A stretch of DNA of 64,000 nucleotides from Pseudomonadota bacterium (GCA_019352135.1 JABBNX010000003.1:3149-67148); one strand, 5' to 3'. Shown: positions 5,451 through 26,517, counted from the first letter of the stretch. Numbers and translations: made by a program. Notes: a model not told the origin generated them from the letters alone.

Positions 5451-8006
5451 CTATTCCGCCTGATCGCATGGTGGACCGCGGCGCCGGATGAGCAGAACCA
5501 TCACGGCCGGCAATGTCACCAGCGCAAACAGGGCCGTAAATCCAACCCCGAAATTGGTGGCCCAGCCGATCGAGGCCAGTGCGGGGTAATCGGCTAACGC
5601 CAGGGAACCGAAGCCGGCGATGGTGGTAAGCGCCGAGAGCAGCACTGCACGCCCCGCCTGGATGAAGCGGGATTCTCTGTCATAACTATCCACGGTTTCT
5701 ACGCGGTGACGGACGTGCATGCCATAATCGCTCCCCATGCCGATAATCGTCACCAGCACCATGGCGTTCATGAAATTGAGCCCCATCCCGGACAGCGCCA
5801 TGGTCCCCAGCATTGCCAGTGAGCCGGCGATGACCGGGAACATGGAGTAAAAGATCCCGTCGGGCGATTTAAAATGGGCCAGGAGCAGAAACAGTACCAA
5901 AAGACCGCCGATCAGGAAACTCCAGAGAAAACTGTTCTTGACCGAAGCGGCCAGCTGCGAGCTTACCAGGTCGACACTGGTAACCCGCGCCGCGGGGTCG
6001 ATGCCGGCCAGTTCGCGCAGAAACGCGGCCTGGTCGAAACCGGTATTCTTGTAGTACAGGTACAGGAGCGCGTGGTAACCGGACGCATCCTTGACCAGGT
6101 GGCGATCCACAACCCCCCGCAGCGGTGAGGCCTTCAGGCGGGCGACCGCCTCTTCCTCGGGCACCGGCGTCATGGCGCTCCCCGCAGAGAGCGCGGCAAT
6201 GAACGGCTGAAATGGCCCCGGCTCGAACCCCTGCCTGTTCAGGGCGGCGTTCAGGCCCGCAAGCGGCAACTTCCCGCCCGTGCCGGCGGAAATGGCCCGA
6301 CTGACCTCACGCTGCCGGTCCCGGTTATTAATTATCTGCCCCAGCGAGGACCAGCTGCTGATGCTTCCCCTGCTCTGCCACCTTCGGGCGAGCCCGTCCA
6401 GACGTGCCGCACGGTGCAGCACCTCCGCCAGGTCCTTCCCGTCCACCGCCACCAGCAGCTGCTTTGGCGCCAGGCTCAGATGACGCTCGATCTTCTCCTG
6501 AGCCAGAAAGGCCTCGGAGTGCCGCGGCTGCAGATTTTTAAGCTCGCCGTCGAAGAAGGTTCGGCTGGAGGCCGCAGCCATGAAGATGATTATCAGAATT
6601 GAGATCGCCACCACCGCACGGGGGAAGCGTCCGGTCAGACGCCAGACGCGGCGCAGGCCAAGCTCCGGTATCGGACGGTAACTGGCGGGAAAGCGGCGTT
6701 CCATGTAGACCAGCAACGGCGGCAGAAAGAAAAGGGTTGTATAGAGCGAAAAAACCACCCCCAGTCCGACCAACAGGCCCAGCTCATAGAGGGCGCGCAC
6801 ATCGGAAATCATCAGGGCAAAAAACGGCACCGCCGTGGTGGTGGCAGCGGTAAAAAGCCTGTGGCCGGTGTCGACAACTGCCAGGTGCAGCGCCTCGTCC
6901 GCTCCTCTGCCGGCCGCTCGTTCACTGTGAAAACGGTCGTAGAGATGGATCGAATAGTCGGTCCCGAGGCCGATGATCAGCGCCATAAAGGCAAAAGAGA
7001 TGATGTGGATCGAGGGGAGCAGCAGCCCGGCGACTCCGAGCGCCAGCGCTACGCCGGCAGCGATGATCAGCGGCAGCAGCAGCGTGGGAAGGATGCGGCG
7101 GTAGACCAGATAAAAGATCGCCAGCACTACCGCCAGCGAAGAGAGGATGCAGGCGAGAATATTGGACTTCATTACCGCTTCATCCAGCACCGCGCTGATA
7201 TGGGCTCCGGCACAGGAAATGGCGACCTTTGACCCCTGACGTGCCGTGTTGATGCTCGCCACCAGGGCGCGGGCAAAGGCCATGTCCTGCACCGGCCGGG
7301 CCGGTTCGGCGATCATGATCAGCACTTTGCCGTCCCGGGAAATGAAGTAGGGTGAGGCGGGGTCCAGGTCGAGCGCCTGGCTTGCGGCCTTGAGGCGCGG
7401 CAGGATAAGGTCGCGCAGGTAGAGCGGATCGGCGCTGGCCAGCCCGGTCATGGCGCCGCCGAACTGGCCGGCCAGATCGCCCTGGAGTCGGCGCAGGGAG
7501 TTGTCCATCGAAGCTGGTGTAAAGCGCCGCAGCAGAACGGGGACATCTTCAGGCCCGATAAACAGTTGCGGGCGGGTCACGGCGTAGGCGATGAAGTCAG
7601 TAAAGGCGGCAGCCTCATTTTCGTCAAAAACCCTCCAGGTGATGCGCCGGAAGGCCGGTTTCCCGTCAACCTGCGCCGTACGGAGGCGTTCGGCAAAGCG
7701 TTCGGCCTCGCGGGGAAGCTCTTCCTTCTTCCCTTCCAGCAGGAAATAGGCATCATTGGCGCTGCCGCTCCACTGCAGTGAATCGAGCAGCAGCTTCAAC
7801 GCCGGTTGGCGCGTCGGGAAGAGCTGAAAGATATCGGTGTCGAAACGGGTGGTGGAGATCACCCCGGCCGAGATCAGCAGCGCGAGAAAAAAGACGCACA
7901 GTACGGTCCGGGGCCTGGTGGTCGTGGTCCGAAAGACCCATTCCAGGTGGCGACGAGTGAGGGAATTGAATCGGGATGTCAGACGGGAGACTATTTTTCG
8001 GGGCAT
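5451..8006 (-). CDS. MMPL/RND-superfamily lipid exporter
   Basis: 851 aa with two bundles of hydrophobic helices separated by soluble domains. The duplicated motifs GLGTDYSIHL and GMGSDYGMHV are typical of MMPL-type exporters. It is the last gene of the lipid operon. Confidence 0.85.
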   Translation of the reverse strand: MPRKIVSRLTSRFNSLTRRHLEWVFRTTTTRPRTVLCVFFLALLISAGVISTTRFDTDIFQLFPTRQPALKLLLDSLQWSGSANDAYFLLEGKKEELPREAERFAERLRTAQVDGKPAFRRITWRVFDENEAAAFTDFIAYAVTRPQLFIGPEDVPVLLRRFTPASMDNSLRRLQGDLAGQFGGAMTGLASADPLYLRDLILPRLKAASQALDLDPASPYFISRDGKVLIMIAEPARPVQDMAFARALVASINTARQGSKVAISCAGAHISAVLDEAVMKSNILACILSSLAVVLAIFYLVYRRILPTLLLPLIIAAGVALALGVAGLLLPSIHIISFAFMALIIGLGTDYSIHLYDRFHSERAAGRGADEALHLAVVDTGHRLFTAATTTAVPFFALMISDVRALYELGLLVGLGVVFSLYTTLFFLPPLLVYMERRFPASYRPIPELGLRRVWRLTGRFPRAVVAISILIIIFMAAASSRTFFDGELKNLQPRHSEAFLAQEKIERHLSLAPKQLLVAVDGKDLAEVLHRAARLDGLARRWQSRGSISSWSSLGQIINNRDRQREVSRAISAGTGGKLPLAGLNAALNRQGFEPGPFQPFIAALSAGSAMTPVPEEEAVARLKASPLRGVVDRHLVKDASGYHALLYLYYKNTGFDQAAFLRELAGIDPAARVTSVDLVSSQLAASVKNSFLWSFLIGGLLVLFLLLAHFKSPDGIFYSMFPVIAGSLAMLGTMALSGMGLNFMNAMVLVTIIGMGSDYGMHVRHRVETVDSYDRESRFIQAGRAVLLSALTTIAGFGSLALADYPALASIGWATNFGVGFTALFALVTLPAVMVLLIRRRGPPCDQAE

Positions 8007-8012
8007 CTGGTT

Positions 8013-8711
8013 CTATAATCCCTTGAGGGCGGAAAGGGGCAGGACCGTCAACCCATCAAGATGCGGCACGAACACGGCGTCATCAAGAGGCGTGTTGACC
8101 TCCGGTTCATCAAGCGTTATCCGGATCCGGTCGTCACGCTCGTTGCGCAGATCAAGCTGCGCTGCAACCGGGACACCGTTGACGACGGCATATTTGCTGT
8201 AGCGGACAAGATCGCCGCGGGCGGATTCCTTGGCTGTGATCAGGCCGTTTTCGTACGTTACCTTTTCAGAACATCCGAGCGTACCTGTGCGCTCCACCGT
8301 TCCGTTGATCGGCTGCCCGTCTTTTCCCGGGTCGGCATCCATAACCCAGCGCATCAAGCGCCACCCCTGCAAGCCCCCCTTGTCGGGCAGTTCATCGAAT
8401 CGTCCCACATACGCCGTTGATCGTGACGGATAGATCAGTGTCATGCGGTCCCCAAGGGCAAATGCTTCCATCATCGTCGTACCGAACGGTGAGAGCACCA
8501 CCAGATGGAGCTCATCGGGGCGGCGGAAGAGCAGGTAGCCGCTTCCCCCCATGCTTCCGCTCTGCGCGGCATGGATCGAGAGGGATACGGCGGATGAGAG
8601 CGTACTCATGACAGCCCCCGGGCGGTAGTCGATGGGCGGAGCAGGAACAGTGGCGCAGGCGGTGAGCAGCAGCAACGGCAGCAGATGTTTTACTAATCGA
8701 TACAACGGCAT
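8013..8711 (-). CDS. Lipoprotein, LolB/DUF3261-like by context
   Basis: Signal peptide with lipobox LLLTAC. It sits between the LolA-like gene and the MMPL gene, where aryl-polyene clusters carry a DUF3261 lipoprotein. The start is ATG 8711 (MPLYRL..) or 8729. Confidence 0.65.
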   Translation of the reverse strand: MPLYRLVKHLLPLLLLTACATVPAPPIDYRPGAVMSTLSSAVSLSIHAAQSGSMGGSGYLLFRRPDELHLVVLSPFGTTMMEAFALGDRMTLIYPSRSTAYVGRFDELPDKGGLQGWRLMRWVMDADPGKDGQPINGTVERTGTLGCSEKVTYENGLITAKESARGDLVRYSKYAVVNGVPVAAQLDLRNERDDRIRITLDEPEVNTPLDDAVFVPHLDGLTVLPLSALKGL

Positions 8712-8735
8712 AATATTTTCTTTCCTCATAACAAA

Positions 8736-9368
8736 CTATTCCAGCCGGAAATCCTTCTCCGTCAGGCCGACATTGCGGCGTACTTTTTTCAGGGTCATGG
8801 TGGCCCGGTCGCCGTTTCGTTCATTTATAACAAGCTTTCTGATGGTGCCGTTTCCCAGAAAAACAATGGAAATATCCTTTACCTGCCCTTTACCCTGGGG
8901 AGTGACCGTCAGGGTGTAGACGGAATTGGTCAGGTCAGCCTGGACTGTTACTCCGTCCGGCAGCGACGTGACCGGCGCTGCCAGTTTGGAAAACCACTGT
9001 TTCAGGCCCTGCTCCGGCGGAAGCGCAATTCTGGTGGGAGTCCTGTCTTTGCCTGAAATCTGTTCGATGATAGTGTCCCGCAGCAGCATGCGGCTGTTGA
9101 AGGGCGGGTTTATCTCCATAAAAAACAGATCGGGCTTTTTAAAGCGAAGCGAGCCGCTCATCACCATGGTCCGCTTCATCAGGGAGAGCCGTTTTTCCTG
9201 GGTGATGTCGGCGGTAAAATCGGAAATGCCGGCAAAGCCGCGACGAAAAGCCTCCAGTCCTTCAACAGGAGAGATTGTACGGGCAGAGCAGGGGGAGGTA
9301 GTCAGCAGGAGCGCCACCAGCAGAAAGAATAGCTGACGGAACGCTTTTACCTGATTAATTGACTTCAT
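8736..9368 (-). CDS. LolA-like periplasmic lipid/lipoprotein carrier
   Basis: 210 aa with an N-terminal signal peptide (..LLLTTSPCSA). F.A.F.Q........SG.L...KP..F... is a LolA-like pattern. ATGA overlap with the upstream dehydratase gene. Confidence 0.7.
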   Translation of the reverse strand: MKSINQVKAFRQLFFLLVALLLTTSPCSARTISPVEGLEAFRRGFAGISDFTADITQEKRLSLMKRTMVMSGSLRFKKPDLFFMEINPPFNSRMLLRDTIIEQISGKDRTPTRIALPPEQGLKQWFSKLAAPVTSLPDGVTVQADLTNSVYTLTVTPQGKGQVKDISIVFLGNGTIRKLVINERNGDRATMTLKKVRRNVGLTEKDFRLE

Positions 9369-9748
9369 AAATTTCCCACCCCGAGGGTCAGCTGCACGGA
9401 GAGGAGTTGATCCGCTCCGCTGAAAACATCCCCTTCTATCATGAACAAGCGCCCGAATGATTTTATCACCCTGGCTGAAACGGTGAGGACGGCCCCGACA
9501 TCCGGCCGGCCGGAAAATTCCGCATGATCTATTGACGCCATAAATCCTCCCTCCCCCTCTGCCTGCGCAACAACAATACCGGCTAACTGGGCAACAGCTT
9601 CGATCATGAGGATCTGGGGAAAGCCGCGGGAAGCGCCCACACCTCTCCGGGCAATTCCTCGCACTCCCTGTTCCAGCTCAATAATGCGGTCAAGAAGCAG
9701 AAACGGGTAGCGGTGGGGGAGATAGTGTGCCGGGTCGGGATTAAACAG
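9365..9748 (-). CDS. FabZ/FabA-like hot-dog fold (3R)-hydroxyacyl-ACP dehydratase
   Basis: LPHRYPFLLLDRIIEL...MIEAVAQLAGIV is the FabZ signature. The listed 231-aa ORF runs deep into the upstream KS-partner gene. There is no in-frame ATG/GTG/TTG after the upstream stop. The best candidate is CTG 9748, 5 nt downstream of an AGGGAGG Shine-Dalgarno, so the start is uncertain. Confidence 0.7.
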   Translation of the reverse strand: MFNPDPAHYLPHRYPFLLLDRIIELEQGVRGIARRGVGASRGFPQILMIEAVAQLAGIVVAQAEGEGGFMASIDHAEFSGRPDVGAVLTVSARVIKSFGRLFMIEGDVFSGADQLLSVQLTLGVGNL

Positions 9749-10784
9749 CGGGGCCTCCCTTAAATCGGATGGCGTAGTACGGACCTTCGGGTGAGGCCGC
9801 CAGGTGCAGGCCGGCCTGGTCAGGCTGGAGCGAAGCCAACAGTGCTGCCATGGCGGTGCCCCCCATGGCCAGCGAACGGCCGACAGTGCGCCCGATATCA
9901 ATCGTGGGGCTGAGGGCAACCCGCTCCAGAAGTCCCGGCATATCTGCTGCTGTACCGGAGAGCGATACAGGGCTGCAGGAATCGGGTGAACCGGTAAGAA
10001 GATCGAGAGCTTCACACTCACGTCCGGAAGCAAACATGCCGATAGTTGCGATCGCATCAACAGCTGCTTTTACAACAGCGCCACGCCGGGCGGCATGGGC
10101 CGCACTTTCGAGGACAATGATGCCGCACCCTTCTCCGAAAGGCGCGGAGGCGAGCGTCATCTGCCCCATGACATCAAACCCCTTGATTATGAGTGGAATG
10201 AGCTCATCCGCTCCTCCGGCCAGCATAATATCGGCACGCCCCTCTTCGATAAAACGGCATGCCATCATGAACGCGGATTCTGCCGAGCAGAAGCGCTGGA
10301 CCAGGGTAACATTGGGCCCCTTGAAGCCATGCTCGATGGAAGCATTACTGGCAGGGGAATTGGGGACGGTGTTGGGAAATATCATCGGGATCAATCCCTC
10401 GATTCCGCCCGTAAAGTACCCGGTCAAAAATTCCGCGGAATTTGATACTCCGCAAAAGCCGCTGCCAAGCGCGATGCCAACCCGTCCCGGAGGAAGCAGT
10501 TTCAGGTCGAGACCGGCATCTTTCAAGGCCAGGCCGGCCACCGCAACCGCAAACTGGCTGCAGCGGTCCATCTTGCGGGCTTTCATGGGCGGCATGAAGT
10601 CGGACGCCTTGAATCCGTTCACTTTCCCCCAGAAAAGTCCGTCCCTGCCGAGCACATCGCCGGGAATGGGCGTAACTGCATCACACCCGGTGCGCAGAAG
10701 ATCCTGAATGGCGGCTATCCCTGTTCCGGCAGCGGAGACAGCGGAGTAACCGGTTACAACGATTCCTGAGATCGGACTATTCAT
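9741..10784 (-). CDS. Ketosynthase-like partner subunit (chain-length-factor-like)
   Basis: 347 aa with a thiolase fold. It keeps a Cys (Cys166, QRFCSAES) at the position of the KS active-site Cys. It lacks the His dyad: SLSGTAAD replaces NAHGTGTP. ATGA overlap with the KS gene. Confidence 0.8.
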   Translation of the reverse strand: MNSPISGIVVTGYSAVSAAGTGIAAIQDLLRTGCDAVTPIPGDVLGRDGLFWGKVNGFKASDFMPPMKARKMDRCSQFAVAVAGLALKDAGLDLKLLPPGRVGIALGSGFCGVSNSAEFLTGYFTGGIEGLIPMIFPNTVPNSPASNASIEHGFKGPNVTLVQRFCSAESAFMMACRFIEEGRADIMLAGGADELIPLIIKGFDVMGQMTLASAPFGEGCGIIVLESAAHAARRGAVVKAAVDAIATIGMFASGRECEALDLLTGSPDSCSPVSLSGTAADMPGLLERVALSPTIDIGRTVGRSLAMGGTAMAALLASLQPDQAGLHLAASPEGPYYAIRFKGGPAV

Positions 10785-11986
10785 AGTGACAGCACCAGAG
10801 AGGTAATATTTCCGCCAAAGGCAAAGGAGTTGGACATGGCAATGGTACTATCGGTCGGCACACTGCCGGCATGGCAATACTCCAGGTCGCACTCCGGGTC
10901 ACGGCCGCGGTAATTGAGCGTCTGGGGAATAATTTTCTTATTGAGTGCCAGTACGGTTGCAACGACCTCGATAGCCCCCGCTGCCCCCAGACAGTGCCCG
11001 GTCATCCCTTTGGTAGAAATGAGCGGAACCTGGGGAGCGCGCTCACCGAAGACCAGTTTCATCGCATTCGACTCAACCACATCGTTGAGCGGGGTTCCGG
11101 TGCCGTGAGCGTTAACCCAGCCGACCTGCGAGGCATCAACAGCGGCCCGCTCAAGAGCCTGGAGCATGACACCCGCCGCCGCCGTACCGCCCGGTTCAGG
11201 TGCCGTCATGTGATACGCTTCGCCCGCCAGGGCATAGCCAAGCAGAGCGCCGTACATCCGGGCGCCACGAGCCAGGGCATCGTCCTCTCGCTCCAGCACA
11301 ACGAAGGCAGACCCCTCACCCAGGGAAATTCCCTGACGATCGAGACTGAAAGGCGCACAGGGTTGGGGGTCGACCACCCGCAGCGAATTGAATCCTGCAA
11401 ACGTCAGCATTGAAAGCGTATCCGCACCGCCTGCCACCATAAGCTTCTGACGGCCGCTGGCCACCAGGTCGGCCGCCCAGCCGATAGCGGTTGCGGAGGA
11501 GGAACAGGCGGTCGTCACCGTCCCCTGATAGCCGCACAGATTGTAGGTCCGGGCGATATCCGTCGAGGTCTGGTCCGGCAGGATGCCGCGCAGCAGCGAT
11601 GGGCGCTCCTCCCGTCCCTCAAGAAGGGCTTTCAGCCAGATCTCCCCCTGGAACATGCCGGCAGCGCCACCTCCCATGGAGACCCCCATGTCATATGGGG
11701 AATAGCGGTCGGTGACGCCGCTGTCCCGAAGCGCCTGGCCGGCGGCAATGACGCCGAACTGGTCAGAACGGGACAGTTTGCGGGCAGACCGGGAATCGAA
11801 ATAATTGAGCGGGTCATACCCTTTGATCTGCGCCCCTATTTTGGCCGGAAAGGGGGATACGTCAAAGAGGTCCAACGGCTGAATGCCGCACCTTCCTGCG
11901 CAGAGCGCATCGGTAAATTCCGTCACGCTCTTTCCGACGCTGCAGAAGACCCCCAGACCGGTGATGACAACGCGTTTTCCGGTCAT
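10781..11986 (-). CDS. Beta-ketoacyl-ACP synthase II-like (FabF family)
   Basis: 401 aa. Active-site Cys in TTACSSSATA (Cys161) and His residues in AYHMTAP and NAHGTGTPLND. C-terminal SNSFAFGG. Confidence 0.9.
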   Translation of the reverse strand: MTGKRVVITGLGVFCSVGKSVTEFTDALCAGRCGIQPLDLFDVSPFPAKIGAQIKGYDPLNYFDSRSARKLSRSDQFGVIAAGQALRDSGVTDRYSPYDMGVSMGGGAAGMFQGEIWLKALLEGREERPSLLRGILPDQTSTDIARTYNLCGYQGTVTTACSSSATAIGWAADLVASGRQKLMVAGGADTLSMLTFAGFNSLRVVDPQPCAPFSLDRQGISLGEGSAFVVLEREDDALARGARMYGALLGYALAGEAYHMTAPEPGGTAAAGVMLQALERAAVDASQVGWVNAHGTGTPLNDVVESNAMKLVFGERAPQVPLISTKGMTGHCLGAAGAIEVVATVLALNKKIIPQTLNYRGRDPECDLEYCHAGSVPTDSTIAMSNSFAFGGNITSLVLSL

Positions 11987-12729
11987 ACGATACCACCATC
12001 AACAATGATAGCCTGACCCGTGATATACGAAGCCCGCTCCGACGCAAGGAACATGACTGCGGCAGCAACCTCTTCAGCTGTACCGATCCTCCCGAGGGAC
12101 GACCTGCGGACAATCTGTTCCACCACATCCTGCTTCAGGGCAGCGGTCATCTCCGTCGCAATAATCCCGGCCACAACCGCGTTGACACGTATCCCCATCG
12201 GGCCGGCCTCGCGTGCCAGCGATTTTGTAAAGCTGATCGCAGCCCCCTTGGAGGCAGAATAGTTGCTCTGCCCCTGAGTGCCGATTATCCCGGAGATTGA
12301 AGAGATGTTGACAATACTGCCGCTGCGACGTCCCATCATCTTGCGCAGACCCCACTTGCTGCAGTGAAAAAGTGGATTGATATTTGAGCGGATGACCGCA
12401 TCCCAATCATCCTCCGACATCATGGCCAGGTAGCAGTCTCTGATAATGCCGGCGTTATTCACCAGGACATCAATATGCCCGGAGGCCGCAGCGACTGCGT
12501 TGATCAATCCGGTCGCGCCCTCAGAGGTAGACACGTCAGCCTTGAACGGTGTAATCGTCCCCGGCAGGCCGTCGGCCTCTTCGGTCACAGCCCGGGCAGC
12601 TTCGTCGTTGCTCAGATAGGCGGCGAACACGGTGGCGCCTTCACGGGCAAAAGCCAGGGAGATGGCCCGGCCGATCCCCCTCGTCCCGCCGGTAACAACA
12701 ACAATTGAATCCTTGAACTCCATAACCAC
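11983..12729 (-). CDS. 3-oxoacyl-ACP reductase (SDR, FabG-like)
   Basis: 248 aa. VVVTGGTRGIGRAI cofactor motif, NNAG, and YSASKGA catalytic Tyr/Lys. Confidence 0.9.
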   Translation of the reverse strand: MVMEFKDSIVVVTGGTRGIGRAISLAFAREGATVFAAYLSNDEAARAVTEEADGLPGTITPFKADVSTSEGATGLINAVAAASGHIDVLVNNAGIIRDCYLAMMSEDDWDAVIRSNINPLFHCSKWGLRKMMGRRSGSIVNISSISGIIGTQGQSNYSASKGAAISFTKSLAREAGPMGIRVNAVVAGIIATEMTAALKQDVVEQIVRRSSLGRIGTAEEVAAAVMFLASERASYITGQAIIVDGGIV

Positions 12730-12824
12730 CCCAATGAACTAATGTACTGCGTCAAGTATACCGGTCGCACCGAAAAATGTCCAGCGTGCGGCACCTGCCG
12801 AAGTTGCGGGTATCGGCAGAGTGA

Positions 12825-14207: not shown

Positions 14208-14626
14208 GGAACTTCCAGCCACGCCAGCAGGCGCGTGACCCGCTCGGCAATCACCGGCGGCATCTGAAACTGGAGCACGCCATTCATATCGGTCAGTGCG
14301 TGGGTTGTCACGCCGGTGGCACATTTTGTACCATCCGGGCCGATAATGGTGGAGATGAATTCAAGGGTGGCGGTGCTGGTGCGCCGCAGGGTGGTCTGGA
14401 TCGTCAGTACCTCGTTAAAACGGGCCGGACGCAGAAATTTCAACTCAAGAGCAACCACCGGCCCCAAAAAACCATCGGCAATCAGCTGGAGTGCATCGAG
14501 ATCGAACTGCCCTGCCAGAGCATTGCGGCCGATTTCCATCCAGGCGACATAATGGCCGTGCCACGCCACCCGGTAGGCATCAATTTCGTTGAAACGGACG
14601 GTTATGCTGGTTTCGTGATTTTTCAT
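14204..14626 (-). CDS. 4HBT/YbgC-type hot-dog acyl thioesterase
   Basis: 140 aa. RFNEIDAYRVAWHGHYVAWMEIGR matches the 4-hydroxybenzoyl-CoA thioesterase family N-terminal motif. Confidence 0.8.
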   Translation of the reverse strand: MKNHETSITVRFNEIDAYRVAWHGHYVAWMEIGRNALAGQFDLDALQLIADGFLGPVVALELKFLRPARFNEVLTIQTTLRRTSTATLEFISTIIGPDGTKCATGVTTHALTDMNGVLQFQMPPVIAERVTRLLAWLEVP

Positions 14627-16996: not shown

Positions 16997-17053
16997 GAAC
17001 TATTCCTCTCTCTGGTCCACATTTTTAAATTGGGTTAAACGGTAGTTACCTGT

Positions 17054-18004: not shown

Positions 18005-18017
18005 GCTGTGTTCATGG

Positions 18018-19373: not shown

Positions 19374-20749
19374 CAGTTGCTGCCCCTTTTTTTCGTCTTT
19401 GGCTGAAGGCCTTTGAACTCGTTTTCCCAGACCGGATCGGCAATCTCACCATAGGCGCGGGAGTAGTCATCCATGCTGTCCGCCAGTCCGGTGAAGATTT
19501 CATCTGCCCCATCATGGGTTGGATAGGCACCCTCCGAGGCGAACAGCTCCCGTCCGGCAGCAGGCTGGTCTATCAGCATGCAGGGGCGCAGCAGGTTCTC
19601 GTGTTCGCCCTGCTTTGCGCGGATTTTAGTGAAAAAGGGAGATGCCAGCGCCTCATGAATGGTTGTCCGGCGAATATTATCAACGGCAAAATGGCAGAAG
19701 ACACACGGCTCGATGTCGCCGTTGGCATTGATATGAAAATACTTGCGCCCGCCGGCCAGACAGCCGGAGATCATCGGCCCGTCGTTCCAGAAATCGATGA
19801 ACAGCATCGGCTTGGTGGCACGGTAGTCGATAACGGTTCGGCGCAGGCCATCGCGCTGTTCCGGGGTCGGCATCAGTTCCGGCTCAGGCTTGCGCCCTAC
19901 CGGTACATAGGAAAAGAGCCACATCGCAAAGACCCCTTTTTTCAGGAGCATGTCGATATAGTCGCCATTGGTGATGATGTCGGAGTTTTTGCGGGAATGG
20001 GTGAATGAACCGCAGAAAGACAGCCCCCCCTCCCTCATCAGGTCCATGGCATGCATAACCTTTTTGAAATGTCCCGCGCCGCGGCGTTCGTCGGTTTCCT
20101 GCTCATACCCTTCCAGCGAAAATGACGGCATGACGTTTCCGACCTCGGTCAGCTTCTCCACCATTTTTTCATCGATCAAGCCGCCGTGGGTAAAGACCAG
20201 GAAGGCCATGTCGCTATGCTTTTTGAATATCTCGAAAATGCCTTCCATATAAAACGGCTCACCGCCGGATATTACCGCAAAATAGACCCCCATCTCCTTC
20301 ATCTGGAGCAAGATGGAATCAACCTCCTCCAGAGAGAGCTCCAGCGACTTGTCATAATCACCGGCGTAACAGCCGTAGCAGTTCAGATTGCAGCGCATGG
20401 TAGGGCTGATGACTACGGTTGAAGGGGGATAGTAACCGTGCGCGTCGCTCCACTCCTTGCGTTTGTTGGTGCCGTTGAGCAGGTGATTGACCAACAGATT
20501 ACTGATCCATTTGTCACGCTGGTTAGGGTGCAGATCACGCAAAATACGGCGCGGGAACTCGATACTCGGATGCTTGTCCCGCACCAGACCGCGAATCCAG
20601 CGGATGCGTTCCTTGTAGTAGTCTTTCTTGGGAATCCTCTCCATCAGATGGGTCATGCGGATCAGGGTCTCATCCGATGAATTTATCGCCAGTTCCAGGA
20701 GATAGGAAAGCACCTTATCTTTGGTATAATTTTTCAGAGTGTTGATCAT
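19373..20749 (-). CDS. Radical SAM enzyme with a C-terminal Cys-rich SPASM/twitch-like domain
   Basis: 458 aa. Triad PTMRCNLNCYGCYAG after an N-terminal extension of about 100 aa. Downstream cluster GCLAGGRKYFHINANGDIEPCVFCHF. No B12 domain. Confidence 0.8.
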   Translation of the reverse strand: MINTLKNYTKDKVLSYLLELAINSSDETLIRMTHLMERIPKKDYYKERIRWIRGLVRDKHPSIEFPRRILRDLHPNQRDKWISNLLVNHLLNGTNKRKEWSDAHGYYPPSTVVISPTMRCNLNCYGCYAGDYDKSLELSLEEVDSILLQMKEMGVYFAVISGGEPFYMEGIFEIFKKHSDMAFLVFTHGGLIDEKMVEKLTEVGNVMPSFSLEGYEQETDERRGAGHFKKVMHAMDLMREGGLSFCGSFTHSRKNSDIITNGDYIDMLLKKGVFAMWLFSYVPVGRKPEPELMPTPEQRDGLRRTVIDYRATKPMLFIDFWNDGPMISGCLAGGRKYFHINANGDIEPCVFCHFAVDNIRRTTIHEALASPFFTKIRAKQGEHENLLRPCMLIDQPAAGRELFASEGAYPTHDGADEIFTGLADSMDDYSRAYGEIADPVWENEFKGLQPKTKKRGSN

Positions 20750-20764
20750 ATGAAAAGTGCCTCG

Positions 20765-21427
20765 TCACATATTACGTAAAAATGTCATGCTGATAGTAAA
20801 TGTATCGTTTATGGGCCGGTAGTGGCTGGTTGCGCGTCCATCGGCAACCCGTGCGGCAACCGGGAGGGAACCAATCGTAAAACCGCTCTTCCAGGCCTTC
20901 AGCAGGATTTCCATCTCCAGAGCGTATCCGTTTGCCTCCAGCGACAGTTTTTTCACCACGTCACCTGAATAGTACCTGAAACCGGACTGACTGTCGGTGA
21001 TCTCAAAACCGGTACGTTTCCATATGCACCAGACACCGATTCGATTCCAGAATTTACGGAGCCCGGCCATCTGTTCGAACTGATCGTGGCGGGACGCAAT
21101 CAATATACCCCACTTGCCGCTTTGTGCAAAAGTGACCAGCCTCGGGATAGCTGACATATCATGTTGGCCGTCCGCATCGATGGTGACCACGGCATCAAAA
21201 CCGGACTCGATCGCCCAGGCAAAACCGGTTTTCAGCGCAGCACCCTTACCACGGTTTTGCTCGTGTCGGAGCAGCGTCACCGGTAATCCGGCAACCAAAG
21301 CAGACGTAGCGTCGGTTGAACCATCATCCACCAGTACGACCGGCACGCCATGTTCCAGACTCTCCCGCACCACTGCCAGAATGGTTTTCTCAGCGTTATA
21401 TGCAGGAATCAGGATACATGCTGCCAC
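20765..21427 (-). CDS. Family 2 glycosyltransferase
   Basis: 220 aa. ILIPAYNAEKTI...VLVDDGSTDAT...TIDADGQHD are the GT2 (DxD) signatures. Confidence 0.85.
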   Translation of the reverse strand: MAACILIPAYNAEKTILAVVRESLEHGVPVVLVDDGSTDATSALVAGLPVTLLRHEQNRGKGAALKTGFAWAIESGFDAVVTIDADGQHDMSAIPRLVTFAQSGKWGILIASRHDQFEQMAGLRKFWNRIGVWCIWKRTGFEITDSQSGFRYYSGDVVKKLSLEANGYALEMEILLKAWKSGFTIGSLPVAARVADGRATSHYRPINDTFTISMTFLRNM

Positions 21428-22281
21428 GTGTTCAGTAACTCCTTGATGGTGGTAAATCGATACCGTTGTAACAGCCCGCTCAACCGGATGGACGCATCCG
21501 TTCGGGTTCCATAGGAGACGAACCGTTTCGGGAAGTGGAGATCAAGCCGGGGGCCGGCAGGGTCCACCTCTCGGGGATGAAGATACAGAACAGCAGGTTG
21601 ATGGGACCGGTTCAGCCCATCGATAGTCGTACAAATGGTCCTGAACGGAAAAAACCTGAATCCCCATCCGCCACCGGTCGGCAGGTTGCCGCCCCACAAT
21701 CGCGTCACCATCGGCGGGATTTCCCACAGGTCCGCTCCTTCACCGAGAAGACGGTAGGGGGTACGGCTGCCGCGGGAATTACCCACAAACGGAAGCGGGT
21801 TGAGACTTGAATCGTAGAGATACCCCTCTTCCCGCAGGATGGCAAAGGGCCAGCCGGTCTGTGCAGACAAAGACCATTGCGGCGCCCGGTATCCAAACGG
21901 GCGCTGCCCGGTCTGCTCCACCAGAATCCGTTCGGTGAGTTGCAGTTCATCCCGGAACTGCTGTGGTGTCAGATCAGACACCAGACGATGTGAATAGCCA
22001 TGGGAGGCTATTTCATGACCTGCCGAACAGATCATTCGTGCCAAATCCGGATCGTTTTCCGCCACGGAACCAAGCATGAAAAACGTGCCCTTCTGGTCAT
22101 GCCGAGAAAGCAGCGCCAGAATTCTCTCCAAGTTTCTCCGCACCCGCCATGTCCCGCGTGAAGGCACAGCCACCCCAGGCGCGCAGACATGGTACCAATC
22201 CTCCACATCGACTGTTAAAACATTGTGCGTCGTAACGTCACTCCGAGACCTGAAGATAAAGAAATAAACATTACATAACAA
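21409..22281 (-). CDS. NodB-type polysaccharide/glycolipid deacetylase
   Basis: 290 aa. LTVDVEDWYH and EIASHGYSH motifs of the carbohydrate esterase 4 family, similar to the PEP-CTERM-locus subfamily. Confidence 0.8.
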   Translation of the reverse strand: MLCNVYFFIFRSRSDVTTHNVLTVDVEDWYHVCAPGVAVPSRGTWRVRRNLERILALLSRHDQKGTFFMLGSVAENDPDLARMICSAGHEIASHGYSHRLVSDLTPQQFRDELQLTERILVEQTGQRPFGYRAPQWSLSAQTGWPFAILREEGYLYDSSLNPLPFVGNSRGSRTPYRLLGEGADLWEIPPMVTRLWGGNLPTGGGWGFRFFPFRTICTTIDGLNRSHQPAVLYLHPREVDPAGPRLDLHFPKRFVSYGTRTDASIRLSGLLQRYRFTTIKELLNTWQHVS

Positions 22282-22287
22282 ATGATA

Positions 22288-23034
22288 TCAAGTCAATACA
22301 CCGTGTTCCTCAGAAGCCCCGGTCCGCTTGCGGCACACCAGAACAATCTCATCAACACCTGCCGTGTCGGCCAGTCCAGCGACGAATTTCAATCGCTTTT
22401 GAATGAGCATCCCCAGCGGCATGAGAACCTTGTTATAGCACCACATTGCTTCCCGCCGGTGATGTTTAAGCCACCAGACCCCGAGGTCCAACAGCAGTGG
22501 GTTAGCCGGTTGCATGCCGTATACGGCACTTTTTTCGATGGCCAGACCATGGGCGGCAAGCAATGCCAGCAAATCCGCAGGATCATACCTGCGCACATGG
22601 CCCACGAATTCGTCGAATTTTGTCCAGAATCTTGTATGCAGGGGGACGGAAAAAACAAAGTAACCTCCCTCCTTAAGCACGCGACTCACCTCACCAAAAA
22701 CCCGCCGGTCATCTTCGGCATGCTCGATGACATCAAAAGCGCAGACAAGTTCAAATTTCCCAGCGCCAAACGGTAAATCACCGATGCCACCGGTGACCGC
22801 GATGCCGCCGCACTCTGTCAGCCGTTCGATCACCGGTGGGCTGATGTCAACGAAACTGGTGCCGTGGATTGGCAGGCGCGGGCGCAGACCTGGCCCTATT
22901 TCCAAGCGCGCCGGGGCAAGCGGCAGCAACGCGGAAATCAGCGGCCAGGTATTGAAACGATCAGGCCGCTGAAGATGAGACTCCGCCCAGAGAACATCAT
23001 AGAAGTCGCGGTTGACGATGGTGCTATTACGCAT
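22288..23034 (-). CDS. Class I SAM-dependent methyltransferase
   Basis: LEIGPG...FELVCAFDVIEHAEDD..VF.EVSRVLKEGGYFVFSVP is a Methyltransf_11/23-like pattern. Start ATG 23034 or 23073; the listed 23205 start overlaps the upstream rSAM gene. Confidence 0.7.
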   Translation of the reverse strand: MRNSTIVNRDFYDVLWAESHLQRPDRFNTWPLISALLPLAPARLEIGPGLRPRLPIHGTSFVDISPPVIERLTECGGIAVTGGIGDLPFGAGKFELVCAFDVIEHAEDDRRVFGEVSRVLKEGGYFVFSVPLHTRFWTKFDEFVGHVRRYDPADLLALLAAHGLAIEKSAVYGMQPANPLLLDLGVWWLKHHRREAMWCYNKVLMPLGMLIQKRLKFVAGLADTAGVDEIVLVCRKRTGASEEHGVLT

Positions 23035-24448
23035 GGTACTGGTCCTGGCGGCATTTTGCACCGTCGACTTCATGTATTGACTCCTGAAATGGTTGCTGAA
23101 AAGAACATTCATCCACATCGGAGGCCTTAAGGCGGTCATTAGGCCCCTTGCGGAGAATGTTGTAAGCCAGGTTTGTAAAGCGGCGGCCCGGATTTTTCCA
23201 GACACGGGACAGGATGGAAGGCCAGGTATACGCCTCCTTGCGCGCCTCCAGCCACCCCCGGTAGAGCTGTTCAGGCGACATCAGCTTCGGCCGGAAGACG
23301 ACTTCCGAGTGGTTGTAACGGTTCCACTCCGTGTGCAGAAGGCGCCCCTCCTGCTCGAACTGTTGAAAAAGCTTTGTTCCCGGATACGGGGTCAGCAGGT
23401 TGAATGTGGGAACACTCGCAGAACACTCCTCAACGAAGCGGAGCGTTTTTTCGAAGATGCTTTGGTCATGGTCGTCAAAACCGAAAATAAGAGACGTTTC
23501 GAGGATAATACCGGCATCACTGACCCGCTTCATAAGTTCTGCCTGAGATGTCTGCCCCGCCGATTTGGCAAGCAGGGAATACGGTCCCGTTATCGACTCG
23601 ATCCCGACGAAGAGGCCGATGCAACCGGAACGGGCGACGAGTTTGAGCAGCTCCCGGTCTTCGGCAAAACGCAGACTTGTCTGGGAGCCCCATCGTATCC
23701 CCATCTCTGCCATCCCTTCAAGGATCGGCCGTGCCTTCGCGGGATCCCCCAACAGATTGTCATCCAGAAATATCACCAGCTTGCGGGGGAAAGCGCCGAT
23801 TTCGGCGAGGATATCGGCAGGGTCGCGGTAGCGGAAACGGTTTCCGAAATAGTGCGTAACGGTGCAAAAAGCGCAGTCGTACGGGCAGCCACGGCTGGCC
23901 TGGACGGTCTGGGTTGTAAGGTACCGCTTGCCGGCCAGGATTTCTCGGCGCGGCCAGGGGACTTGGAGTTTATCATCCTGCGATATGGGTGCGCGGTATA
24001 CCTTTTCCAGCCGGCCGCCGAGAAAATCATCGAGAAGCGTGGCCATGACCGGCTCAGCCTCGCCAATGACCACTGCATCCGCATGGGTAAGAGCCTCTTC
24101 CGGCATGACCGTCGGGTGCATCCCCCCCATGATGACCGGAACCCCTTCTGCCCTGAATTGGTCGGCTATTTCGTAGGCCCGGGTCGCCTGGTGGGTCATG
24201 GCGGTGATTCCAACAAGGTCGAAATCTCTGCCGCATGGAATCGGGTCTTGGCTTTCATCGACGAGGGTCACCTCCCACTGCGAAGGTGTCACTGCAGCAA
24301 CCTGCTGGAGAGAGAGGGAAGGAAGCTGAAAATATTTTGCCCAGCCGAGCTTGTGCGTCGCAGGATAAATGAGAAGGAGTTTCGGACGAGCCTGGTGGGT
24401 GAGGCGGGATTGCGAAAGCCGTGCTTGTTTTGACGATTCTTCTGACAT
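23027..24448 (-). CDS. Cobalamin-binding-domain radical SAM enzyme (paralogue E); first gene of the operon
   Basis: Triad ASRGCPYDCAFCTVT with a B12-like N-terminal domain. ATG 24448 (MSEESSK..) is preceded by AAGGGAA at a spacing of 6-7 nt. The listed 24520 start has no RBS. Confidence 0.85.
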   Translation of the reverse strand: MSEESSKQARLSQSRLTHQARPKLLLIYPATHKLGWAKYFQLPSLSLQQVAAVTPSQWEVTLVDESQDPIPCGRDFDLVGITAMTHQATRAYEIADQFRAEGVPVIMGGMHPTVMPEEALTHADAVVIGEAEPVMATLLDDFLGGRLEKVYRAPISQDDKLQVPWPRREILAGKRYLTTQTVQASRGCPYDCAFCTVTHYFGNRFRYRDPADILAEIGAFPRKLVIFLDDNLLGDPAKARPILEGMAEMGIRWGSQTSLRFAEDRELLKLVARSGCIGLFVGIESITGPYSLLAKSAGQTSQAELMKRVSDAGIILETSLIFGFDDHDQSIFEKTLRFVEECSASVPTFNLLTPYPGTKLFQQFEQEGRLLHTEWNRYNHSEVVFRPKLMSPEQLYRGWLEARKEAYTWPSILSRVWKNPGRRFTNLAYNILRKGPNDRLKASDVDECSFQQPFQESIHEVDGAKCRQDQYHA

Positions 24449-24785: not shown

Positions 24786-25894
24786 GTGAAAGTCATTCTC
24801 CTGCACCCTTACGGCAGCAACTGGCTCGGAGGGATGAAAGACATCAGCACGGTGTTCAACCTGATGCCGCCGCTCGGTATGATGAGCATTGCCGCCGTAC
24901 TTGAACGGGCGGGCATCGACGTTGAAATAATCGACTGTTATGCAACACCACGGCCGCTTGCTGAACTGGTTGATGAAATAATCCGGCGCAGGCCGGACTG
25001 CCTCGGCATATCCACGACAACCTCCTCATTCAATGAGGGGTATCGAATCGCCGCCTCGGTAAAGGAAAAAGCGCCGCACATATTCACCCTCTTTGGCGGA
25101 GCCCACGCCTGTACCATCGGCGCGCCGCTTCTGGATTCATTTCCGGCCATTGATTGCCTGGTGATCGGCGAAGGCGAAAATACCATGCTGGAGCTGGCTC
25201 AAGCCGGTTTCAAAGGGATCGGCCAGATTCCCGGCGTCGCCTACCGCGGTGCAGACGGCAAAGGGTGGCAGAGTTCTGCGCAATCAAAGAACGCAAGGGA
25301 TTGAAGGTTACCTACAACTGCATTGCCCGCCTGGAGCATGTGGACCTGGAGCTGCTGGCGCTCCTCAAACGCTCCGGGTGCTGGCAGGTCAATTTCGGTA
25401 TCGAGTCGGGTGATCCGGAAATAGTAAAACAACATCGGAAATTTTTAGGATTGGATGAAGTGGGGCGGAAGCTGCTCATGGTGAAGGAGGCCGGCATGCG
25501 GGTCAAGGGGCTCTTTATGGTCGGCCTGCCGGGCGAGACCGAGGCAGCTATCCGCCGCACCATCGATTATGCCCTGTCTCTTCCGCTGGACGAGATCAAT
25601 GTCACGAAATTCACCCCATTTCCCGGCGCGCCGGTCTATGCCACGACCAGAGAGCGGGGAGAGTTCGAGGAGAACTGGGATCTGATGAATTGCCTGAACT
25701 TCGTTTTTGTGCCACACGGCATGACCAAACAGCAGCTGGAAGATCTCTACAACGAGTTCATCCGGCGCTTCTACCACCGCCACCGCATCCAATGGGGCTA
25801 TACTCGGATGCTGTGGAAATCCCCCCACAGTATCATGTCATTTATGCGCCATCTGCCAGAAATACTGGCTTTTGAGAAAAAACAAAAGTGGTAA
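24786..25894 (+). pseudogene. Decayed cobalamin-domain radical SAM paralogue (internal deletion plus frameshift; CxxxCxxC motif lost)
   Basis: ORF 24786-25304 encodes only the B12-like domain (MKVILLHPYG..IGEGENTMLEL..GVAYRGADGK). ORF 25154-25894, in another frame, becomes homologous only from about 25265 (VAEFCAIKERKGLKV..FGIESGD..). The roughly 85-90 aa that carry the radical SAM Cys triad in paralogues A/B/C/E are absent. Confidence 0.7.
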
Positions 25895-25926
25895 CATCAA
25901 TGCACCAATTCCACAGGAGCACTATA

Positions 25927-26517
25927 ATGAAAAATTGGAAAAAAGCCTTCATTTTTGTAGTGCTGATCATTTTTTCACGGGCATTGCCGGCGTCAGCAGA
26001 TAACACCGCCTCCACTGCGTCGGGGGAATACGGCGTCCTCACCGGTTACGGCATTTCACATATCGGCTTCGGTGCAACCCGCCATCAGGTTCAGACGTGG
26101 GACTTCATCCTGCGGGCCGGTTTTTTTCTTTCGGATGAGGTCGGCAAAGGGAGCTGGTATCAAGGTCGACATGAGATTTTACTTGAGCTCCCTTACCACA
26201 TGGCGGTAGACCATGGCGACCGCTCCATGGTGGGGGGATACGTGCTCGGCCACTGGAGATTCACCAGCATGGACAAGTTTGTACCCTACGTGTTTGCCGG
26301 AGGCGGCCCGTTGTACGTGGACCTGGGACTGCCGACGATGGGCACGAAACTCTGCTTCAGCTACCAAGGGGGAACCGGGCTGCAGTATTTCATAGACAAG
26401 AAAACCGCACTGAATTTTGAGTACCGCTATCATCACATCTCAAATGCCGGCACAGCTGAGCCTAATGAACCGATCAACTCAAGCAAGATATTGGTGGGAG
26501 TGTCATTTTACCACTAA
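25927..26517 (+). CDS. PagL-like outer-membrane acyloxyacyl hydrolase (lipid A 3-O-deacylase family)
   Basis: Signal peptide MKNWKKAFIFVVLIIFSRALPASA and alternating beta-barrel-like sequence. C-terminal FEYRYHHISNAG...ILVGVSFYH contains the family His-x-Ser catalytic pair. Start set at ATG 25927 inside the listed ORF. Confidence 0.7.
   Translation: MKNWKKAFIFVVLIIFSRALPASADNTASTASGEYGVLTGYGISHIGFGATRHQVQTWDFILRAGFFLSDEVGKGSWYQGRHEILLELPYHMAVDHGDRSMVGGYVLGHWRFTSMDKFVPYVFAGGGPLYVDLGLPTMGTKLCFSYQGGTGLQYFIDKKTALNFEYRYHHISNAGTAEPNEPINSSKILVGVSFYH

Follow-up and report, generated by a model that had tools for sequence, protein, structure and literature searches.

A conserved radical-SAM and fatty acid synthase gene cluster of Geobacterales, a candidate pathway for an envelope glycolipid

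Gene clusters that combine fatty acid synthase (FAS) genes with genes for radical S-adenosylmethionine (radical-SAM) enzymes were described by Rattray et al. (2009) in Kuenenia, together with similar clusters in Desulfotalea, Geobacter species and Pelobacter carbinolicus. Ladderane lipids are known just from anammox Planctomycetota, and Rattray et al. (2009) reported no ladderanes in Desulfotalea despite its syntenic cluster. Since anammox bacteria are not genetically manipulable, the biosynthesis of ladderanes has stayed open for more than 20 years; papers from 2023-2026 describe the anammox pathway as still unsolved, with heterologous attempts having failed to produce the radical-SAM enzyme. 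According to a 2026 review, ladderanes and jawsamycin are so far the only acyl lipids, as distinct from isoprenoid ones, for which tailoring by radical-SAM enzymes has been proposed. In addition, "ladderane" calls made by antiSMASH in Desulfobacterota and other phyla have been reported as unexplained. Here we analyzed a cluster of this type that occupies positions 5451-24448 of a 64,000-nucleotide stretch of DNA (hereafter, the window) deposited as Pseudomonadota bacterium (GCA_019352135.1, JABBNX010000003.1:3149-67148), whose host is a Geobacter relative.

An earlier note on this DNA had described the cluster as one operon joining an assembly and export chassis like that of aryl-polyene (APE) clusters to five radical-SAM enzymes, and as a candidate pathway for an undescribed modified envelope lipid. 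We give an even chance to the reading that the cluster represents, within Geobacterales, an orphan pathway of wide distribution, and that it makes and exports a specialized amino-sugar envelope glycolipid with a radical-SAM-tailored acyl chain. The note had stated, correctly, that such gene sets were proposed for ladderane synthesis and seen in some deltaproteobacteria (Rattray et al., 2009), and one of the cluster's proteins passes the curated family TIGR04072. The word "undescribed" was too strong, as this has been an orphan cluster type since 2009, with a curated family of its own and the antiSMASH "ladderane" calls in Desulfobacterota. A full-text literature search identified no paper assigning a product to the Geobacter cluster, and beyond Rattray et al. 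(2009) it turned up only anammox structural papers and genome-mining surveys on this cluster type.

All 19 co-directional minus-strand open reading frames (ORFs) from 24448 to 5451 had a significant Pfam match that agreed with the label given in the earlier note. They are listed below in the order of transcription, with the handles used in this text, followed by a divergent plus-strand pair that was also included in the region 5451-26517 covered by that note.

23027-24448, minus strand: rB1, B12-binding/radical-SAM protein with DUF4070 (Pfam; start at 24448)
22288-23034, minus strand: MT, class I SAM-dependent methyltransferase (Pfam Methyltransf_11/23)
21409-22281, minus strand: DAc, NodB-type deacetylase (Pfam Polysacc_deac_1 and DUF3473)
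20765-21427, minus strand: GT2, small glycosyltransferase (Pfam Glycos_transf_2)
19373-20749, minus strand: rSP, radical-SAM/SPASM protein (Pfam Radical_SAM and SPASM)
18018-19373, minus strand: rB2, B12-binding radical-SAM protein, BchE/HpnR-like (Pfam)
17054-18004, minus strand: LpxL-family acyltransferase (Pfam Lip_A_acyltrans, 102.8 bits)
16739-16996, minus strand: ACP, acyl carrier protein of APE type (Pfam PP-binding)
15456-16742, minus strand: rB3, B12-binding radical-SAM protein with DUF4070 (Pfam)
14623-15459, minus strand: AT, FabD/MdcH-like malonyl transacylase (Pfam Acyl_transf_1)
14204-14626, minus strand: TE, 4HBT/YbgC-type thioesterase (Pfam 4HBT)
12825-14207, minus strand: rB4, B12-binding radical-SAM protein, TIGR04072 (Pfam and NCBIfam)
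12730-12824, minus strand: 95-nt gap between two modules, with the best sigma-70-like match at 12783..12755
11983-12729, minus strand: KR, FabG-like ketoreductase (Pfam adh_short/KR)
10781-11986, minus strand: KS, FabF-like ketosynthase (Pfam ketoacyl-synt, N- and C-terminal domains)
9741-10784, minus strand: CLF, truncated ketosynthase partner (Pfam ketoacyl-synt, N-terminal domain only)
about 9365-9747, minus strand: hot-dog protein ("DH"), FabZ-like (Pfam)
8736-9368, minus strand: LolA-like periplasmic carrier with signal peptide (PF03548, 43.8 bits)
8013-8729, minus strand: LolB-like lipoprotein, lipobox LLTAC (PF03550, 26.2 bits)
5451-8006, minus strand: MMPL/HAE3-type RND transporter (Pfam)
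24786-25891, plus strand: sixth B12-binding radical-SAM gene, a pseudogene (alignment to the intact orthologue in locus L041)
25888-26517, plus strand: PagL-family outer-membrane deacylase, intact (PF09411, 78 bits)

To place the cluster among relatives, homologues of rB4 were collected from one genome per GTDB species, which gave at least 557 relatives, and the best 80 loci were fetched, their ORFs called and each ORF assigned to its best-matching window protein. These best 80 loci were nearly all from Geobacterales. Homologues of rB4 up to 91% identical occurred in Desulfuromonadaceae and Geobacteraceae metagenome-assembled genomes (MAGs), and the cultured carriers included Geobacter argillaceus, Pelotalea chapellei, Trichlorobacter thiogenes, Oryzomonas japonica, and Geomonas and Geotalea strains. 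In nearly all the fetched Geobacterales loci a 16-gene order was conserved: DAc-GT2-rSP-LpxL-ACP-rB3-AT-TE-rB4-KR-KS-CLF-DH-LolA-LolB-MMPL. An identical gene order in dozens of species-level genomes indicates that the arrangement is not due to chance. The window copy is a further member of this known orphan cluster type, with rB1, MT and rB2 as clade-specific extras.

Gene content was compared over the 39 loci that span DAc to KS, in which DAc is present by selection and rB4 by construction, as it was the query. All 39 hold GT2, rSP, LpxL, ACP, AT, TE, rB4, KR, CLF, the hot-dog protein and LolA. The earlier note had treated five radical-SAM genes as one set interleaved with the FAS genes; conservation of these enzymes alongside KS and ACP held for rSP (39/39), rB3 (37/39) and the query rB4 (39/39), and did not extend to rB1 (18/39) or rB2 (7/39), while MT was present in only four. 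The core radical-SAM enzymes are thus rSP, rB3 and rB4, and rB1, rB2 and MT are accessory. Mean identity over the 39 loci was highest for ACP (83%), rSP (80%, the most conserved enzyme) and rB3 (76%), and this top rank among the products of the cluster argues for a central rather than a decorative role of these proteins.

The paired rB1 and MT genes upstream of DAc were confined to the closest relatives (loci L001, L009, L011 and L012). Elsewhere rB1 lies between rB3 and AT, as in many loci, or is divergent upstream, as in G. sulfurreducens. The nearest locus, from a Desulfuromonadaceae MAG (L001), has the same order as the window with 75-96% identity through LolA, where its contig stops. That gyrA, a HEAT-repeat gene and gpsA are common to the loci of the close relatives indicates vertical inheritance.

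Tight coupling of the 19 genes, with largest gaps of 57 and 95 nt, was reproduced when the junctions were recomputed. In transcription order these measure -8, +6, -19, +15, -1 and +13 (or -23) nt from rB1 to LpxL, then +57, -4, -4, -4, -4 and +95 nt from LpxL to KR, and finally, from KR to MMPL, -4 and -4 nt, a CLF/hot-dog junction left undefined by the start of the hot-dog gene, and -4, +6 and +6 nt. As the earlier note had stated, Pfam detected no regulator, transposase, ammonia-lyase or adenylating-ligase domain within the 19 genes. An Rfam search of the window found no cobalamin riboswitch or other Rfam element. The part of the "one operon" claim that concerned a co-directional array therefore stood, and a single transcription unit was not established, because the 95 nt that separate rB4 from KR hold the top sigma-70-like match of the region (TGGACA-17-TATACT, 10/12 consensus positions), which makes two transcription units possible. 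In this promoter and terminator scan the total match counts were not above those of shuffles, so that only the position of the best promoter-like match is suggestive.

The same gap separates two modules. In G. sulfurreducens (CP010430.1, 2,268,587-2,289,963; locus L081) the order DAc-GT2-rSP-LpxL-ACP-rB3-AT-TE-rB4 (module A) is retained, with an rSP orthologue 76% identical to that of the window; downstream of rB4 there are MaoC- and DCC1-like genes and then unrelated genes, and the half from KR to MMPL (module B) is not there. About 11 other Geobacterales loci also stop after rB4. The joining of both halves in one operon, as proposed in the earlier note, is hence not universal. The fused arrangement from DAc to KS was nevertheless the commonest, being found in 39 of about 56 informative Geobacterales loci. 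Module A encodes an ACP, a malonyl transacylase, a thioesterase and an acyltransferase but no condensing enzyme, and module B encodes KS, CLF, KR and the export trio but no ACP. As each half lacks what the other supplies, the modules are complementary. In CLF the active-site cysteine is replaced by phenylalanine (RFCSAES), the same deviation (Phe163) as in the G. sulfurreducens ketosynthase paralogue NP_951518 tabulated by Rattray et al. (2009), and on the basis of that paralogue module B is presumably located elsewhere in the G. sulfurreducens genome.

We compared the cluster by BLASTP with the APE cluster of E. coli CFT073 (C_RS05565-C_RS05645). The proposed APE-like chassis was borne out as remote homology, at 23-42% identity: ACP was 42% identical to its counterpart (C_RS05630), KR 35%, KS 33%, GT2 30%, TE 27%, the LpxL-like protein 26% and MMPL 23%. 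The LolA-like and LolB-like proteins had no BLAST match in the E. coli APE cluster. The two cluster types share a private ACP, an inactive partner beside KS, a KR of FabG type, hot-dog and 4HBT thioesterase proteins, the GT2 and LpxL-like domains and an MMPL pump; each also has a small lipoprotein and a LolA-like protein, the latter recognized in the window by Pfam. In the APE cluster the GT2 and LpxL-like domains are fused, the N-terminal half of C_RS05605 (558 aa) matching the window GT2 and its C-terminal half the LpxL-like protein, whereas in the window they are separate genes; the fusion argues that both act on the same molecule here.

The cluster fails the defining APE feature, the aryl starter, as the absence of aryl-starter loading pointed out in the earlier note held up: the 19 genes encode no AMP-binding or ammonia-lyase domain and gave no BLAST match to the ligase C_RS05615. 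There is also one ACP, as that note had counted, against two in the E. coli APE cluster. Besides the acyl-CoA synthetase/ligase and the second ACP, the window cluster also lacks the COG4648-type membrane protein of the APE cluster, its additional KS and its acyltransferase of PlsC type. The window lipoprotein is LolB-like by Pfam whereas that of APE clusters belongs to DUF3261, and the window KS is nearer to FabF than to the APE KS. Conversely, the window cluster goes beyond the APE set with its malonyl transacylase, its deacetylase and its three to six radical-SAM enzymes.

Among the module A partners of the radical-SAM enzymes, GT2 resembles, by its sequence, the polyprenyl-phosphate sugar transferase type, its best NCBIfam matches (PpgS, AglJ, dolichyl-P hexose transferase and ArnC) all being below cut-off. 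DAc scored 227 bits against TIGR03006 (cut-off 276). The best NCBIfam match of the LpxL-like protein, also below cut-off, was the phosphatidylinositol mannoside (PIM) acyltransferase PRK07920, and no LpxL, LpxM or LpxXL cut-off was passed. ACP does pass NF006617/PRK09184 (71.9 bits, cut-off 70), whose product name is the RefSeq name of the matching E. coli APE carrier protein. The FabD-like AT noted earlier was recovered as an Acyl_transf_1 match; it scored 125 bits against MdcH and 100 bits against FabD, both below cut-off, and has the EHSMG serine motif with the arginine and histidine present. MT had no specific PDB or NCBIfam relative, and a proposed tie to an anammox methyltransferase structure was dropped for lack of a specific PDB match.

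In module B, KR scored 265 bits against TIGR01830 (cut-off 298). KS has an intact Cys-His-His triad with the motifs TTACSSS, HGTGT and GHCLGAAG, and against solved structures it scored 275 bits with canonical FabF of B. subtilis, 262 with 9s5h_B, 234 with the ishigamide KS (6kxd) and 189 with the APE KS (6smo_B). CLF has neither a C-terminal domain nor the C-terminal His-His, and its match to FabF N-termini (90 bits) is stronger than that to the APE partner 6smo_C (56 bits). The start of the hot-dog gene could not be placed, as there is no in-frame ATG, GTG or TTG between 9901 and 9664. Its orthologues mostly start at an ATG 19 codons before PHRYPF, where the window has ACG, with AGGGAGG just downstream (9741-9760), and at least six other loci (L005, L011, L018, L022, L064 and L072) are likewise without a nearby start codon. 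Non-canonical initiation, coupling to the CLF gene or decay are possible explanations. In most orthologues of this family variable residues replace the catalytic histidine of the FabZ "GHFP" motif, which makes ordinary FabZ-type dehydration doubtful. Against structures, the hot-dog protein matched ordinary FabZ at E = 7e-7 and 8ayb-d at E >= 5.6e-4. No enoyl reductase is encoded in the cluster, as determined by Pfam over the 19 genes.

In the putative export trio, the LolA-like protein scored 46 bits against the flexirubin LolA2 model, below cut-off. In Pfam the lipoprotein is matched by LolB rather than DUF3261, and an hhalign comparison of its profile with that of the DUF3261 protein of E. 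coli gave a probability of 14%. The lipobox cysteine of the lipoprotein (Cys25) is invariant in 16 orthologues. The best NCBIfam matches of MMPL were HpnN (192 bits, cut-off 752), HAE3 and BstA, all below cut-off. A 1163-aa gene of the GH13 alpha-amylase family lies between the LolA-like and LolB-like genes in Geobacter sp. AOG1 (L034, 15740-19231), and about eight other loci have equally wide LolA-LolB spacing; the insertion in L034 fits a carbohydrate-bearing product.

The count of five radical-SAM genes in the array was confirmed, four encoding B12-binding and Radical_SAM domains and one Radical_SAM with SPASM (Pfam). As rB1-rB4 each have PF02310 and PF04055, with CxxxCxxC visible in all four, they are predicted by their domains to be class B (cobalamin-dependent type) enzymes; AprD4 has a B12-binding domain yet is cobalamin-independent. 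Only rB4 passes a curated family cut-off, scoring 378.9 bits against NCBIfam TIGR04072 "rSAM_ladder_B12" (cut-off 360), and the other four radical-SAM proteins pass none in NCBIfam. It was scored as the longest ORF, 12825-14324; the 460-aa product starting at 14207 has its length set by the homologues. The nearest solved structures are TsrM and AprD4 for rB4, 9ccb, AprD4 and CysS for rB3, and SkfB and the sugar decarboxylase BlsE for rSP. An N-terminal extension of about 100 aa is present in rSP, and its C-terminal domain looks twitch-like, given just four cysteines after the radical-SAM core. rB1 and rB3 are paralogues with 41% identity; rB2 scored 193 bits against the BchE model, below cut-off, and HpnJ was among the best NCBIfam matches of rB3 at 89 bits (cut-off 578). 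Since the relatives of rB3, rB4 and rSP include methylases, an amino-sugar diol dehydratase, and thioether and decarboxylation enzymes, the chemistry of these enzymes is not readable from homology.

Two further kinds of radical-SAM gene accompany the cluster. The sixth B12-binding radical-SAM gene of the window consists of two ORFs, 24786-25304 (B12-binding) and 25154-25894 (Radical_SAM), which are the ends of one gene. Relative to the intact 473-aa orthologue (L041, 19465-20883), about 97 codons including CxxxCxxC are deleted, residues 1-167 aligning to 24786-25286 and residues 265-473 to 25265-25891 in a different frame. In L041 and L057 the PagL gene likewise adjoins the sixth radical-SAM gene and has the same orientation. 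Upstream of module A in G. sulfurreducens (L081, 5543-8292) there are two divergent B12-binding radical-SAM genes, of which one is the rB1 orthologue (76% identical) and the other is just 28% identical to rB2; the latter is a further, seventh radical-SAM type in the cluster family.

Outside Geobacterales, adjacent homologues of rB3 (66-68% identical) and rB4 (52-56%) were found in Acidobacteriota of the groups Holophagales and Thermoanaerobaculia (L070, L073, L074, L075 and L079). The pair is followed by an esterase/TPR gene in L070 (8540-12757) and L074 (3440-9574), the rB3 homologue of L074 is fused to a long TPR region, and in L073 and L079 another radical-SAM gene lies a few kb upstream. 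No ACP, KS, FAS or export genes occurred near the pair in the Acidobacteriota loci examined. A Thermodesulfobacteriota MAG (L078) has an rB3-like gene, rB4, KR and KS in a row. The rB3/rB4 pair is thus an invariant unit across three phyla, and in Acidobacteriota it looks like a horizontal transfer of a two-enzyme unit.

The link of rB4 to anammox bacteria draws on the NCBIfam model and the literature. A search of cluster representatives yielded more than 150 full-length relatives of rB4 at 34-50% identity, and two cluster look-ups gave no anammox name, the names in them including Deltaproteobacteria, Ca. Schekmanbacteria and Paenibacillus. Among the type II FAS-like genes of the anammox candidate clusters lie, as in the window, B12-radical-SAM genes and further radical-SAM genes; a deacetylase, a methyltransferase and a KS paralogue without the active-site cysteine are also common to both. 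Anammox Cluster I (KustE3603-3608) has a phytoene-desaturase-like flavoprotein beside amxACP, amxFabZ, a FabF2/FabFmut pair and a B12-radical-SAM enzyme, whereas Pfam found no amine-oxidase/phytoene-desaturase domain in the window cluster, which is without the phytoene-desaturase-like and phenylacetyl-CoA-ligase-like genes of the anammox clusters. Prominent in the window cluster, by contrast, are its export trio and its pair of GT2 and LpxL-like genes. The KS pair and the hot-dog protein were no nearer to the heterodimer 9s5h and the structures 8ayb-d, which we take to be anammox proteins, than to ordinary FabF and FabZ.

Three other pathways share parts of this logic. The rhizobial AcpXL/LpxXL system serves the very-long-chain acylation of lipid A (27-hydroxyoctacosanoate). 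By gene content, its AcpXL-FabZXL-FabF2XL-FabF1XL-LpxXL set resembles the window cluster in combining an LpxL-family acyltransferase with its own ACP, two proteins of KS type and a hot-dog dehydratase, but it has no radical-SAM enzyme, GT2/deacetylase pair or MMPL/LolA/LolB trio. The Nod-factor pathway comprises the GT2 NodC, the deacetylase NodB, the acyltransferase NodA, the ACP NodF, the KS NodE, the KR NodG and the methyltransferase NodS, and NodB and NodG families were among the weak NCBIfam matches of the cluster proteins. The shared logic is that a GT2 provides an N-acetylhexosamine (HexNAc), a NodB-type enzyme frees the amine, an ACP/KS/KR set makes a special chain and an acyltransferase joins the two, with an optional SAM methyltransferase and an exporter. 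Nod synthesis differs in its processive NodC, NodA, the ABC exporter NodIJ and its lack of radical-SAM enzymes, the window having instead a small GT2 of polyprenyl-phosphate type, an LpxL-type enzyme and an RND pump. Hopanoid modification by HpnI/HpnK/HpnJ with HpnN likewise joins a glycosyltransferase, a deacetylase, a B12-radical-SAM enzyme (HpnJ, ring contraction) and an RND exporter of outer-membrane lipids; its deacetylase is YdjC-type, that of the window NodB-type. The ACP and KS of the window point to an acyl lipid rather than a hopanoid, and the hopanoid pathway itself (HpnH/I/J/K/N/P/R) was rejected, all scores being far below cut-offs.

In the pathway that we propose, GT2 would transfer HexNAc to a lipid phosphate or another lipid acceptor, and the NodB-type enzyme would take off the acetyl group to leave a lipid-linked amino sugar, by the logic of ArnC/ArnD, NodC/NodB and HpnI/HpnK. 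AT would load malonate onto the private ACP, and the KS/CLF pair with KR would extend the chain, in which the hot-dog protein may join and host enzymes may help, with the thioesterase editing or releasing it. The LpxL-type enzyme would then move the ACP-bound chain onto the glycolipid. Tailoring of the chain or the sugar would be the task of rSP and rB3/rB4, and in the clade of the window also of rB1, rB2 and MT. Finally, the MMPL pump, the LolA-like carrier and the LolB-like lipoprotein would deliver the product to the outer membrane, as HpnN, BstABC and APE systems are thought to do with their lipids. From these likenesses we infer that the head group is an amino sugar, that acyl transfer runs from ACP to the glycolipid and that the product is destined for the outer membrane, and every radical-SAM reaction is to be read in the same way. 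Candidate reactions are methylation, hydroxylation or C-C bond formation on the chain and rearrangement of the sugar. We think it possible, at rather low probability, that rSP and rB3/rB4 act on a fatty acyl chain or a glycolipid by a new radical reaction that is mechanistically related to the missing ladderane step, candidates being C-C bond formation or cyclization, iterative alkylation and anaerobic mid-chain functionalization.

Several observations weigh against the proposal of an amino-sugar glycolipid with a radical-SAM-tailored chain. The LpxL family is known for the O-acylation of lipid A or PIM, and lipid A itself may thus be the acceptor; moreover, PagL flanks the cluster, either upstream or downstream, in 7 of the 39 loci as well as in the window. 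With a hot-dog protein without the FabZ histidine and no enoyl reductase, the chain could be saturated (with help from the host), 3-hydroxylated or a polyene. Module A occurs without module B nearby in G. sulfurreducens and the 11 or so other loci, and so the halves may not make one molecule. The Acidobacteriota rB3/rB4 pairs without ACP or KS imply that the substrate need not be an ACP-bound chain. The earlier note had placed the radical chemistry on the acyl chain, and that part was not supported, as the combination of GT2, deacetylase and B12-radical-SAM enzyme also fits head-group chemistry (HpnI/K/J, AprD4).

The main rival is remodelling of lipid A or lipopolysaccharide (LPS), which we consider unlikely overall. 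A private FAS set would build a special secondary acyl chain that the LpxL-type enzyme puts on lipid A; GT2 and DAc would make an undecaprenyl-phosphate amino sugar (as ArnC/ArnD, LgmA/LgmC and FlmF2/NaxD do); the radical-SAM enzymes would modify the chain anaerobically, for example by mid-chain hydroxylation or methylation; and PagL would trim the remodelled lipid A. The Lip_A_acyltrans match, the linked PagL-family (lipid A deacylase) gene at either end, a GT2 that resembles ArnC and PpgS beside an ArnD-like NodB-type deacetylase, and the AcpXL/LpxXL precedent all fit this explanation, and Geobacter LPS is reported to contain unusual 9- and 10-hydroxy-16:0 (Hedrick et al., 2009). However, the cluster has no ArnT-like GT-C transferase to place the amino sugar on lipid A, and LPS needs no MMPL/LolA-like/LolB-like trio, yet the trio is conserved (LolA in every one of the 39 loci). 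In addition, ACP, TE, KR, KS, GT2 and MMPL are homologous to parts of APE clusters, whose product is not lipid A, and the acyltransferase is matched best by a PIM acyltransferase rather than LpxL or LpxM. An exported, lipid-anchored antioxidant pigment, an aryl-less polyene of APE-like or ishigamide-like type, appears improbable to us. In that case KS with its inactive partner, KR and a hot-dog dehydratase would, without enoyl reduction, build a conjugated polyene on ACP, to which the radical-SAM enzymes add methyl branches. The missing enoyl reductase, the KS/inactive-partner architecture known from APE and ishigamide systems, the APE-type ACP and the remote homology to six APE proteins are consistent with it. 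Against these stand a KS nearer to housekeeping FabF than to 6kxd or 6smo_B, the absence of a starter ligase, and a single hot-dog protein without the FabZ histidine in most orthologues, whereas APE systems have dedicated dehydratase genes; nor is any pigment known.

Another explanation that we hold to be improbable is that two unrelated units are adjacent, module B being a self-contained APE-like export set and the radical-SAM enzymes of module A acting on a sugar, a cofactor or bulk lipid. It would account for the Geobacterales loci with module A alone, for the Acidobacteriota rB3/rB4 pair that stands alone with an esterase, and for the position of the best promoter-like match at the module junction, but it leaves the complementarity of the halves, with ACP only in A and KS, CLF and KR only in B, and the predominance of the fused form as points against it. 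A true ladderane or other cyclobutane lipid pathway, to which the family name "rSAM_ladder_B12" and the antiSMASH label "ladderane" would point, is very unlikely in our view. It would agree with rB4 passing TIGR04072 and with the grouping of Geobacter with Kuenenia clusters by Rattray et al. (2009), and it is opposed by the restriction of ladderanes to anammox Planctomycetota, with none in Desulfotalea and its syntenic cluster, by the absence from the window cluster of the anammox phytoene-desaturase-like gene, and by the fact that neither the KS pair nor the hot-dog protein resembles the presumed anammox structures more than it does FabF and FabZ.

Genes of other functions also occur in the window. 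A 715-aa protein with DUF5649 repeats is encoded at the left edge (44-2191), and the MMPL gene is separated from gpsA by the gene of a 529-aa HEAT-repeat protein (3740-5329); in the close relatives L005 and L011, too, this HEAT-repeat gene and gpsA follow downstream of the cluster. A chromosomal replication origin region spans 29404-47486, with dnaA (39428-40843), dnaN, recF, gyrB and gyrA on the minus strand and yidC, mnmE, mnmG and rsmG on the plus strand. An AT-rich stretch (GC about 0.41) is found at 38-42 kb, and the cumulative GC skew has its minimum near 40 kb. An origin near 40 kb places the lipid cluster 15-35 kb from it and co-oriented with replication. A CofH/MqnC-type radical-SAM gene (48107-49195), followed by an RNase D-like gene, probably belongs to the futalosine menaquinone pathway and is unrelated to the cluster. 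A type II secretion/pseudopilin run (N_methyl, T2SSJ, T2SSK and MshEN domains) occupies 50327-56637, in which ORFs 52774-54102 and 54644-55486 had no Pfam match, and the R subunit of a type I restriction enzyme, HsdR (ResIII, EcoEI_R_C), is encoded at 59803-62634.

The window copy adds no new principle, and the finding will not surprise specialists; what this analysis adds is the split into core and accessory genes, the two-module structure and the portable rB3/rB4 pair. Conservation of the cluster family is high throughout an order whose members matter in the environment and can be both cultivated and genetically manipulated, and many carriers have up to six radical-SAM enzymes in a single co-directional array with likely substrate-carrier and export machinery. 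As all nine module A orthologues are present in the tractable G. sulfurreducens, ladderane-related chemistry, if that is what these enzymes perform, could be solved there, unlike in anammox bacteria. The product, once found, would explain many "ladderane" false positives in genome-mining surveys and would provide functions for several large uncharacterized radical-SAM families, rB4 alone having at least 1121 representatives of 50%-identity clusters at E<=1e-30. It would also define a new envelope lipid of metal-reducing bacteria, and the family is a tractable entry point to the radical-SAM chemistry of acyl lipids.

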